A stretch of DNA of 64,000 nt from positions 32,001 through 96,000 of the IMG/VR virus record IMGVR_UViG_3300033463_000001. One strand, 5' to 3'. The notes beneath the pieces were generated by a model that was not told the origin of the DNA, did no database searches, and saw only the letters and a program-made list of their open reading frames with translations. Origin of the DNA: a virus. Its lineage: Duplodnaviria > Heunggongvirae > Uroviricota > Caudoviricetes. A program made the translations under genes and the position numbers. Each line of letters starts with the position of its first letter. Position 1 is the stretch's first letter. Shown one piece after another: positions 7,186 to 12,503 of this stretch.

Positions 7186-7261
7186 TAGTCCCGTGTGGGC
7201 TTTCACCACAGACCTCCGCCTTATCGGTGCGGCGCTCTATTTTACTCTGAGCTACGAGACT
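7186..7261 (-). tRNA. tRNA-Ile(GAT), non-canonical
   Basis: ccgca-CC GAT AA-ggcgg (C33), T-loop TGAAAGC. Confidence 0.65.
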
Positions 7262-8633: not shown

Positions 8634-8650
8634 TGTACGCTGTATTTTTG

Positions 8651-8723
8651 CAGGAGTGGTAGGGCTCGAACCCACGACCAACGGTTTTGGAGACCGCTAC
8701 TCTACCAACTGAGCTACACTCCT
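8651..8723 (-). tRNA. tRNA-Trp(CCA)
   Basis: gcggt-CT CCA AA-accgt. Confidence 0.92.
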
Positions 8724-8727
8724 GTGT

Positions 8728-9015
8728 AATATAAAATAAGGGTGTGCTGTTACGCCAAAGCCCTCCCGTAAGTCCTACCAGAAGTGGGTTCATAACCCCG
8801 CCGTACTGCCAACGTACCATTCTCTTGAGGGTGGACTGATTACCCCATTATGGACGGCAGACCATTGAATTACCAATGTCATGTTGTGGATGTCTCCCTT
8901 ACAGTCAATAACACTCTGGGCTATTAACTCCCAGTTGCCTAAGGCTCATAGGGCACTTTCTGCACACTCCTTAGAAGATGGCTGCTTCCAGGCCAACTTT
9001 CCCTTATTTTATATT
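8728..9015 (-). ncRNA. 23S rRNA H43-H44 (L11-binding, GTPase-associated centre) mimic with 210-nt insertion
   Basis: GUUGGCCUGGAAGCAGCCAUCUUCUAAGGAGU...GCGUAACAGCACAC closed by a perfect 15-bp terminal helix. Confidence 0.8.
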
Positions 9016-9017
9016 TG

Positions 9018-9088
9018 TTGCCCCACTCCGATTCGAACGGGGATTCCATGAACCAAAATCATGTGTCCTGCCATTGGACGATAGGGCA
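9018..9088 (-). tRNA. tRNA-Gln(TTG)
   Basis: catga-TT TTG GT-tcatg. Confidence 0.88.
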
Positions 9089-11219: not shown

Positions 11220-11292
11220 TGGACACAGGTGGGATTCGAACCCCTCTGTCACAGTGCAAATGTGACGTGCTAGCCGTTACACTACCCGGCCC
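11220..11292 (-). tRNA. tRNA-Ala(TGC) with atypical acceptor and T stems
   Basis: tcaca-TT TGC AC-tgtga, G3.U70, A73; 8 nt precede U8. Confidence 0.72.
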
Positions 11293-11813: not shown

Positions 11814-12503
11814 TCAATAATCAATTAGTATGACTTGATTCGAACTGTGGTCGCCGGCGGCAAGTTGTCTGCACTGTATGTGGAATTCACTCAAGGCCTG
11901 TTTGGCGTAGTTGGCTGTCCAGTGTGCCTGACAGAACTCACTCACCGGTCGACTGGTTACGTTCTCCTTAACAATCAGGTGATAGTAGACCCTCTCGTAC
12001 TCCGTGCCGTATTGGCTGAAGGATAGTACTCCAGGGAACCCGTTGTCCTCGTCGAAGTAATAGACGGCTGCGGCTTCGTACTTGTTATAATTGGTGATAT
12101 ATAGCGAGAAGTACGTGTACATATTTACCATCTCGAAGATGACATCACCTCCTGACGCCGGGAATTGGAGGATACTCACCTTGTTGTTCCCGTACTGTCC
12201 ATCATGACGAGGCCAGAACTTATAGCTGTCCCATTGATATCCTATGTAGGCCGTAATCCAGCAGACTCCGTGTTCGTCGTAGTAGACAGTGTACGGGCTT
12301 CCAGGTTTGCCACTTGTGTTGGTTGTCCCAGTGGTGTTGTTGCCTTGCGTGGTGCCTGTGTTATTATTACCTGCAGTGTTGTTGTCACCGGGAGTGGTGT
12401 TACGCTCTGTCCGGTATCCAGTATCTTCAGGTTCGTTATACTGCAGGAATTCGCAGGCGTTGCAGAGGAGTACGATGCTTATACATAGGATGAATCGTTT
12501 CAT
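11814..12503 (-). CDS. lipoprotein with Thr/Asn/Gly-rich linker
   Basis: lipobox LCNAC; GNNT repeats. Confidence 0.78.
   Translation of the reverse strand: MKRFILCISIVLLCNACEFLQYNEPEDTGYRTERNTTPGDNNTAGNNNTGTTQGNNTTGTTNTSGKPGSPYTVYYDEHGVCWITAYIGYQWDSYKFWPRHDGQYGNNKVSILQFPASGGDVIFEMVNMYTYFSLYITNYNKYEAAAVYYFDEDNGFPGVLSFSQYGTEYERVYYHLIVKENVTSRPVSEFCQAHWTANYAKQALSEFHIQCRQLAAGDHSSNQVILIDY

Follow-up and report, generated by a model that had tools for sequence, protein, structure and literature searches.

The element under study is a 288-nt stretch on the minus strand (positions 9015-8728 of the window, that is, of the whole 64,000-nt stretch of DNA analysed), which lies between two tRNA genes in a rumen giant phage. 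Its source is a 327-kb IMG/VR phage record, and it is present in one copy. As the original prediction had it, a tRNA-Gln(UUG) gene (9017..9088; ARAGORN; Rfam RF00005, 49.6 bits) lies upstream, with a 1-base gap, and a tRNA-Trp(CCA) gene (8650..8723; ARAGORN; Rfam, 66.2 bits) follows 4 nt downstream; both are encoded on the minus strand like the element. The Rfam tRNA model also reports two more tRNA-like genes on the minus strand, at 7186-7261 (41.7 bits) and 11221-11291 (32.8 bits), which ARAGORN does not list. The element had been described as closed by a perfect 15-bp terminal helix and, indeed, the reverse complement of 9015-9001 (AATATAAAATAAGGG) is identical to 8742-8728 (CCCTTATTTTATATT). 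The 15 bases at either end are also paired by RNAfold, and the fold of the whole 288-nt element has a z-score of -3.26 and beats 200 of 200 shuffles. A search of the element and its flanks against Rfam 15 returned the two tRNAs only, even at E<=10 with permissive filters.

Within its closing helix, the element reproduces the GTPase-associated centre (GAC) of 23S rRNA. The Escherichia coli sequence used for the initial comparison is correct against rrlH 1051-1108 read from NC_000913. In E. coli numbering, positions 9000-8966 correspond to 1056-1090 and positions 8755-8743 to 1091-1103. The 5' strand of the closing helix (9001..9015, complement of 8728-8742) occupies the place of 1041-1055 and continues H42, and its 3' strand (8728..8742), assigned by complementarity, RNAfold and family covariation, occupies that of 1104-1118; the innermost pair is G1055-C1104 and the helix directly prolongs H42. 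The adjoining segment (8966..9000), placed by alignments to E. coli rrlH and to a Bacteroidota 23S rRNA (L532), comprises the A1056 mismatch partner, H43, whose 1067 loop has G1067 here, the junction pair C1082-G1086 and the H44 nucleotides G1087-A1088-G1089-U1090. It is followed on the minus strand by the 5' strand of P-ins (8963..8965), a short helix closing an inserted domain, with its partner strand at 8760-8762; by the inserted folded domain itself (8760..8962), which is class-specific and was delineated with alignment A1 and RNAalifold; by a UUUG linker joining the insert to H44 (8756..8759), which is TTTG in most relatives and is not found in real 23S rRNA; and by the H44 upper stem with the 1095 hexaloop (GCGUAACAGC), then A1101, C1102 and A1103 (8743..8755; alignment to E. 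coli rrlH).

H43 of the element consists of the A-U pairs 1057-1081 and 1058-1080, the G-C pair 1059-1079 and the pairing of 1062-1064 with 1074-1076 (GGC/GCC), which leaves the loop 1065-1073. The H44 hairpin is formed by G1091-C1100 and C1092-G1099 and carries a GUAAYA hexaloop that includes A1095. Relative to E. coli, two pairs differ by compensatory change, A-U replacing U1058-A1080 and C-G replacing U1082-A1086, and an A1056.A1103 mismatch stands in the place of the G.A of E. coli. The element also holds both U1060 and A1088, in addition to its C-G junction pair 1082-1086; in the ribosome, residues 130-131 of the C-terminal domain of uL11 (L11) contact the U1060-A1088 pair (PMC2175356). 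Once its insert is removed, the element aligns to the real Bacteroidota 23S rRNA (L532) over 43 nt at 88% identity (E 2e-6 in a 9.5-kb database), which upholds the claim that a contiguous H43-H44 is obtained upon removal; the insert, however, turns out to be a family expansion site, as described below. Since the element lies outside any 23S rRNA and is flanked on both sides by tRNA genes in a 327-kb phage record, we regard it as a mimic and not as rRNA.

The claimed copy of the GAC is corroborated by the recurrence of the H42 tip/H43/H44 architecture in ~145 distinct sequences with strong covariation, which argues that the match is more than chance. After duplicate removal, we count at least ~145 distinct relatives in IMG/VR phage contigs, prophage-bearing genomes and cultured phages. 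A pattern covering H43 and the junction identified 11 viral contigs and a shorter H43 pattern 34, and a 17-mer across the 3' linker and H44 matched at least 120 viral contigs. The same 17-mer matched 106 genome contigs, 34 of which have the H43 motif upstream (L440 and L498 being doubtful) and 72 of which are chance or coding matches. BLAST searches with the E. coli GAC matched the cultured phages GAP32, CBB, XacN1, XaC1, XbC2, fHe-Yen9-03/04 and Serratia BF, as well as six Erwinia pEa_SNUABM phages, Kaldavass, Aeromonas 4_4572, Pseudomonas pf16, UNO-G1W1, Astolliot and Milchi. The hosts of the cultured carriers are Cronobacter, Pectobacterium, Xanthomonas, Yersinia, Serratia, Erwinia, Aeromonas and Pseudomonas, and the carriers are mostly jumbo phages (GAP32, CBB, XacN1), with smaller ones such as pf16 among them.

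None of the family members is annotated as an RNA. At Rfam 15 gathering thresholds, the window and nine related loci yielded tRNAs only, plus one unrelated group I intron, and the Rfam comparison that accompanied the original prediction as a proposed check thus matched no family. In the searchable literature, we found no paper describing a GAC-mimic phage RNA, and neither Rfam 15 nor the searchable papers hold a trans-acting RNA that copies a functional ribosome centre. The original remark that no described family of this kind was known therefore stands, and the GAC-mimic RNAs are a large phage RNA family that is new relative to Rfam 15 and the searchable literature. Separately, the tRNA array of one relative carries a genuine group I intron (L006:2941-3164; RF00028, 70 bits); this phage also has a GAC-mimic RNA, of the type that includes a sarcin-ricin loop (SRL), and its intron is unrelated to the element.

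The genomic setting is shared across the family. A tRNA lies within 1 kb in 87 of 146 loci, 67 of the 146 elements abut a tRNA, and all 291 tRNAs within 1 kb of the 146 elements are on the same strand as the element, which fixes the transcribed strand of the family RNA. No protein neighbour recurs across the 146 loci, the commonest being present in 9 of them, and we found no uL11 or bL12 gene encoded by the phage studied here. In XacN1, the complete element is followed by its own terminator-like GC-rich hairpin and T run. The XacN1 element (L529:1478-1780; AP018399 ~150.3-150.6 kb) also lies directly downstream of an annotated 2'-5' RNA ligase gene, a possible link to RNA repair observed in this one genome.

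To evaluate covariation, we used a MAFFT alignment of 42 members (A2) into which the GAC pairs were written. Over the closing stem, H43, the 1082-1086 pair and the insert-closing helix, 91.7% of the paired cells are complementary, compared with 65.7% in shuffles and 34-52% with slid partners, and the covariation score is 0.643 against 0.163 for the control, with compensatory change in 19 of 24 pairs. The 10 closing-stem positions each display compensatory change in A2, and eight positions of this stem show all four Watson-Crick types each among 121 members. H43 is 97.6% paired in A2, with compensatory change in 5 of 6 pairs. Among the 121 members, pair 1058-1080 is UA in 48, GC in 32, AU in 30 and CG in 7, pair 1057-1081 is AU in 96 and CG in 21, and pair 1082-1086 is UA in 50, CG in 41, AU in 16 and CA in 14, a pattern matched by none of 500 shuffles. 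The C-G pair that the element has in place of U1082-A1086, which had been put forward as a sign of selection on the fold, is thus one of three covarying states, and A1058-U1080 is another compensatory change. Of the two helices for which covariation had been anticipated, H43 covaries, as do the closing stem and 1082-1086, whereas the H44 pairs are invariant in A2 and hence give no covariation signal for or against.

As the members were fished by patterns, we judged conservation only on the half of each sequence that had not been used for fishing, the invariance of H44 and of the linker being in part imposed by the search patterns. Among the 99 members fished by the 3' motif only, U1060, A1077, A1088, G1089, U1090 and C1072 are each present in all 99, G1071 in 97 and A1067 in 86, and the H43 loop is nearly invariant. 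Conversely, A1095, A1098 and A1101 are each present in all 22 members fished by the 5' motif only, and the H44 segment is nearly invariant in this set. The purine-A mismatch R1056.A1103 is kept across the family. Together, these data indicate that the GAC fold is under selection in the phage family, and we conclude from sequence comparison that the element encodes, on the minus strand with the tRNA array, a stable and structured ~290-nt RNA that belongs to a family whose core is the GAC.

The high identity to 23S rRNA over H43 could also be expected of a dead scrap of host rRNA acquired by illegitimate recombination, or of attachment-site homology devoid of RNA function. We consider this extremely improbable, given the compensatory changes in stems foreign to 23S rRNA (the closing stem and the insert-closing helix) as well as in H43, the spread of the family over phages of many hosts, a strand that is always that of the tRNAs, and a prophage copy unlike the 23S rRNA of its host. 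This copy, in Flintibacter muris, differs from the host's own 23S rRNA in the region, which argues against recent capture as the origin of the family. Strict tracking of host rRNA by the mimic likewise found no support, since the Flintibacter copy differs and A/G1067 does not follow MAG taxonomy cleanly. G1067 and C1097 of the element match the Bacteroidota 23S rRNA (L532), and, of 61 Bacteroidota and 61 Bacillota genomes sampled, 10 of the former and none of the latter have the G1067 form of H43 in their real 23S rRNA; these sequence features hint at a Bacteroidota host for this phage. The G1067 variant has been linked to thiostrepton insensitivity in eukaryotes (PMC2175356).

The 210 nt that follow U1090 (8965-8756) had been interpreted as an insertion splitting the centre. 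Our comparison instead identifies a family-wide expansion site with its own covarying helix and a conserved UUUG linker. Inserts between 1090 and 1091 measure 0, 39, 63, 81 and up to ~450 nt across the family, L012 and L020=L033 being insert-free. Family-wide, the first 3 bp of the insert-closing helix are 92-100% paired and sample all four Watson-Crick types. In the insert class of the element, the first pair is G-C, the second U.G, G-C or C-G, and the third G.G (the element) or G.U (L004, L212), so that P-ins of the element reads G-C, U.G, G.G. The linker is TTTG in 117 of 121 members, a count for which ascertainment was partly by pattern, and TTTG, TTTA or TTAG in members fished by the 5' motif alone.

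The replacement of A1090-U1101 by U-A had been considered a structure-preserving difference from E. coli. The change is present, but it is a feature of the three-way junction that accompanies the insert and not a neutral swap. Indeed, insert-bearing members have U1090-A1101 (A1101 in 22 of 22 members fished without the 3' pattern), whereas position 1101 is still U in the two insert-free forms found and in the real 23S sequences examined; it is because A1101 goes with the insert and U1101 with its absence that we assign the U-A pair to the junction. Such a link between A1101 and the insert would make no sense for an insert removed by splicing. This bears on the proposal of a small group I-like intron made up of the 210 nt, which would excise itself to yield a contiguous 78-nt H43-H44 mimic. 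A U precedes the insert and a G ends it, its size is close to that of the smallest group I introns, and its removal restores the contiguous match to 23S rRNA. We nevertheless judge an intron very improbable, as the insert matches neither RF00028 nor any other family at E<=10, the same model having found the L006 intron at 70 bits; inserts of 39, 63 and 81 nt at the same site are too short for group I; all inserts have the covarying closing helix and UUUG; those of several relatives end in A; A1101 and U1101 sort with the presence and absence of the insert; and some inserts contain functional-looking SRL hairpins. We rejected group I identity on the grounds that the 210 nt lack a catalytic-core (P3-P7) match and form a permanent expansion domain family-wide.

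In ~10 members (L163, L189, L182, L210, L211, L232, L236, L237, L252 and L258), the 3' strand of H43 holds a second expansion hairpin immediately after A1077. In two other relatives, a TnpB/IS605-OrfB-like ORF, recognized by eye from the translation only, lies within the variable insert (L013:2979-4000, and L023, minus strand, from ~970 onward). The position of this ORF inside the insert suggests that a transposon landed in the expansion domain and left the GAC core untouched.

The insert of the element is a 206-nt domain common to a small class made up of the window, L004=L007, L037, L212 and the start of L013, the L013 copy being broken by the TnpB-like ORF. The class fold obtained with alignment A1 and RNAalifold is multi-helical and comprises 71 pairs, 16 of them with compensatory changes. 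It includes a hairpin at 8917-8933, which is the sole piece common to the insert of the element and those of L025 and L015, and a long helix formed by 8850-8860 and 8806-8820. The most conserved part is a 25-nt invariant block at 8787-8811 (AGUACGGCGGGGU). In this class, RNAalifold favours pairing of the 1082-1087 strand with the insert, an arrangement without covariation for or against it. We found no rRNA similarity of the 206-nt insert and no Rfam match at E<=10. Two class-specific patterns identified no members of the insert class beyond L004/L007, L037, L212 and L013, and, when metagenomes were scanned with an insert-derived 15-mer, the matches listed were all due to chance.

Seven inserts of other relatives (L003, L005, L006, L008, L010, L011 and L200) contain an SRL hairpin (AGUA-C-GNRA-G-GAA), recognized by comparison with E. 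coli H95 and set in covarying flanking stems, and thus join GAC and SRL in one RNA. The SRL motif is absent from the insert of the element, where AGUACGGCGGGGU has neither a GNRA loop nor a GAA strand. MAFFT sets the AGUACGG block of the element opposite the SRL of other classes, which may reflect an SRL relic or an alignment artefact. A search for a second rRNA mimic or SRL in the phage genome was negative, as the sole SRL-like 14-mer elsewhere in the tRNA/RNA region (window position 11988) lies within a 229-aa ORF. Another module recurs at the 3' side of the insert in ~27 of 136 other members (e.g. L177, L171, L183 and L205) and consists of a hairpin followed by GGUA(A)GG. It is made up of a 3-bp helix enclosing ACC, a CCN-tetraloop-N'GG hairpin (GNRA or UAAC, with covarying N-N') and UAAG, and the sequence GGUAGGAC at 8772-8779 of the element looks like a diverged version of it. 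We considered whether recurring insert hairpins (CCCCGUAACUGG and similar) could be extra 1095 loops and rejected this possibility, since covariation gives tetraloop hairpins of the GNRA or UAAC type.

We lean, with moderate confidence, towards an RNA that is released by tRNA processing, binds uL11 and, away from the ribosome, mimics the factor-docking site to serve as a decoy or a platform. In such a pathway, 3' processing of tRNA-Gln would set the 5' end of the RNA and the RNase P cut at the 5' end of tRNA-Trp would set its 3' end, after which the two RNA ends would adopt the GAC fold, to which host uL11 would bind; the invariance of U1060-A1088 underlies the proposed binding. Away from the ribosome, the free RNP would act in trans by mimicking the stalk base on which factors dock, and would capture or present a reader of the site, whether RelA, a translational GTPase, or a toxin or defence enzyme directed at the GAC. 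The phage-variable domain grafted into H44 at the three-way junction would add a second specificity, namely an SRL copy in seven relatives and a different 206-nt fold here. The conserved factor-facing loops, the SRL copies in seven members and the tRNA-operon setting speak for imitation of the factor site; the lack of a conserved protein partner nearby and of a uL11 or bL12 of the phage's own speak against it.

Any RNA sponge would also face competition from tens of thousands of ribosomes, which counts against a decoy. Isolated SRL RNA binds EF-G and IF2 in vitro, with a micromolar Kd for the SRL (PMC3496166). Both elements are targets of known enzymes: Tre23 ADP-ribosylates positions 1095-1098 of H44, and the SRL is cleaved by VapC toxins (PMC8661411). 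The RNA of the element may differ in its ligands from the GAC+SRL forms, as it has G1067 instead of A1067 and no SRL module. The freely varying sequence of the closing stem makes binding of uL10 doubtful and a specific uL10 site on the phage RNA unlikely.

The main rival to imitation of the factor site is that the GAC is a mere chassis, a stable, uL11-clamped and nuclease-resistant handle, and that the insert, acting as an aptamer, ribozyme or guide, is an effector unrelated to this site. The great diversity of the inserts (0 to ~450 nt, in many unrelated classes) around a constant core, their invariable exit through a defined three-way junction and the recurrence of some insert modules between classes would all suit such a handle. 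The insert-free members L012 and L020=L033 imply, however, that phages retain the core for its own sake; A1067 and A1095, which face the factors, are conserved although neither is known to be needed for binding of the uL11 C-terminal domain; and the SRL copies of seven inserts lead back to the ribosomal factor site. We therefore deem a mere handle unlikely.

Alternatively, the RNA could titrate uL11 or stalk proteins away from ribosome assembly, which would produce uL11-less ribosomes without RelA activation or with altered release-factor use, no external ligand being decoyed. The invariance of the uL11-contact nucleotides, the high copy number implied by the tRNA-operon location and the requirement of uL11 for RelA activation are compatible with titration. 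We regard it as quite unlikely, as it leaves the variable inserts and the SRL modules unexplained, phages need efficient translation, and the freely varying closing stem makes a specific uL10 site improbable.

Returning to imitation of the factor site, we tentatively extend it to a broader proposal, which we see as possible yet short of probable: phages of many lineages would make an RNA replica of the uL11 stalk base, some with an SRL, that intercepts a host reader of this site, for instance the RelA/stringent-response machinery or an rRNA-directed defence toxin of the Tre23 (ADP-ribosyltransferase) or VapC type, with interchangeable inserts tuning the target. If so, the replica would be the rRNA counterpart of the phage tRNAs that counter tRNA-targeting defences. 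Should uL11 and factor-site ligands prove to be bound, these RNAs would represent a new viral route to manipulate translation, the stringent response or anti-ribosome immunity, and would offer structural biology a naturally occurring 'ribosome in pieces'. The existence of cultured carriers makes the GAC-mimic RNA directly testable.

The phage RNA shares with the 23S GAC (E. coli 1051-1108, the 58-nt uL11/thiostrepton domain) the same helices, R1056.A1103, the 1082-1086 pair, U1060/A1088 and the same loop sequences at 1066-1073 and 1093-1098. It differs in being a free-standing gene in a tRNA array, in having H42 replaced by a plain variable helix, in the domain grafted between 1090 and 1091 with its UUUG linker, in the U1101A change and, in this member, in G1067. 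With group I introns (RF00028), it has in common a ~200-nt insertion in a conserved RNA, preceded by U and ending in G, but the phage insert has no catalytic-core match and is a permanent expansion domain.

GOLLD and ROOL are large ornate phage-associated RNAs found beside tRNAs, and the GAC mimic resembles them as a structured non-coding RNA of a phage tRNA region. It differs from them in having no sequence or structure match in Rfam 15, and to our knowledge neither GOLLD nor ROOL copies rRNA. Ribosomal-protein mRNA leaders that mimic rRNA sites, such as the rplJ/L10 leader (RF00557), are also non-ribosomal RNAs imitating an rRNA protein-binding site, and the Rfam leader families do not match the 288-nt element at E<=10. 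These leaders act in cis in cellular mRNAs and are loosely rRNA-like, whereas the phage RNA would act in trans, has loops near-identical to rRNA and is tRNA-flanked. Finally, in the account of their work given in PMC3496166, Munishkin and Wool (1997) found that isolated SRL and thiostrepton-domain RNAs bind EF-G in vitro. Some members of the family resemble such 'ribosome-in-pieces' oligoribonucleotides in joining GAC and SRL in one molecule; whereas those are synthetic fragments, the phage RNA is natural and carries extra domains, the member described here having the GAC half only.
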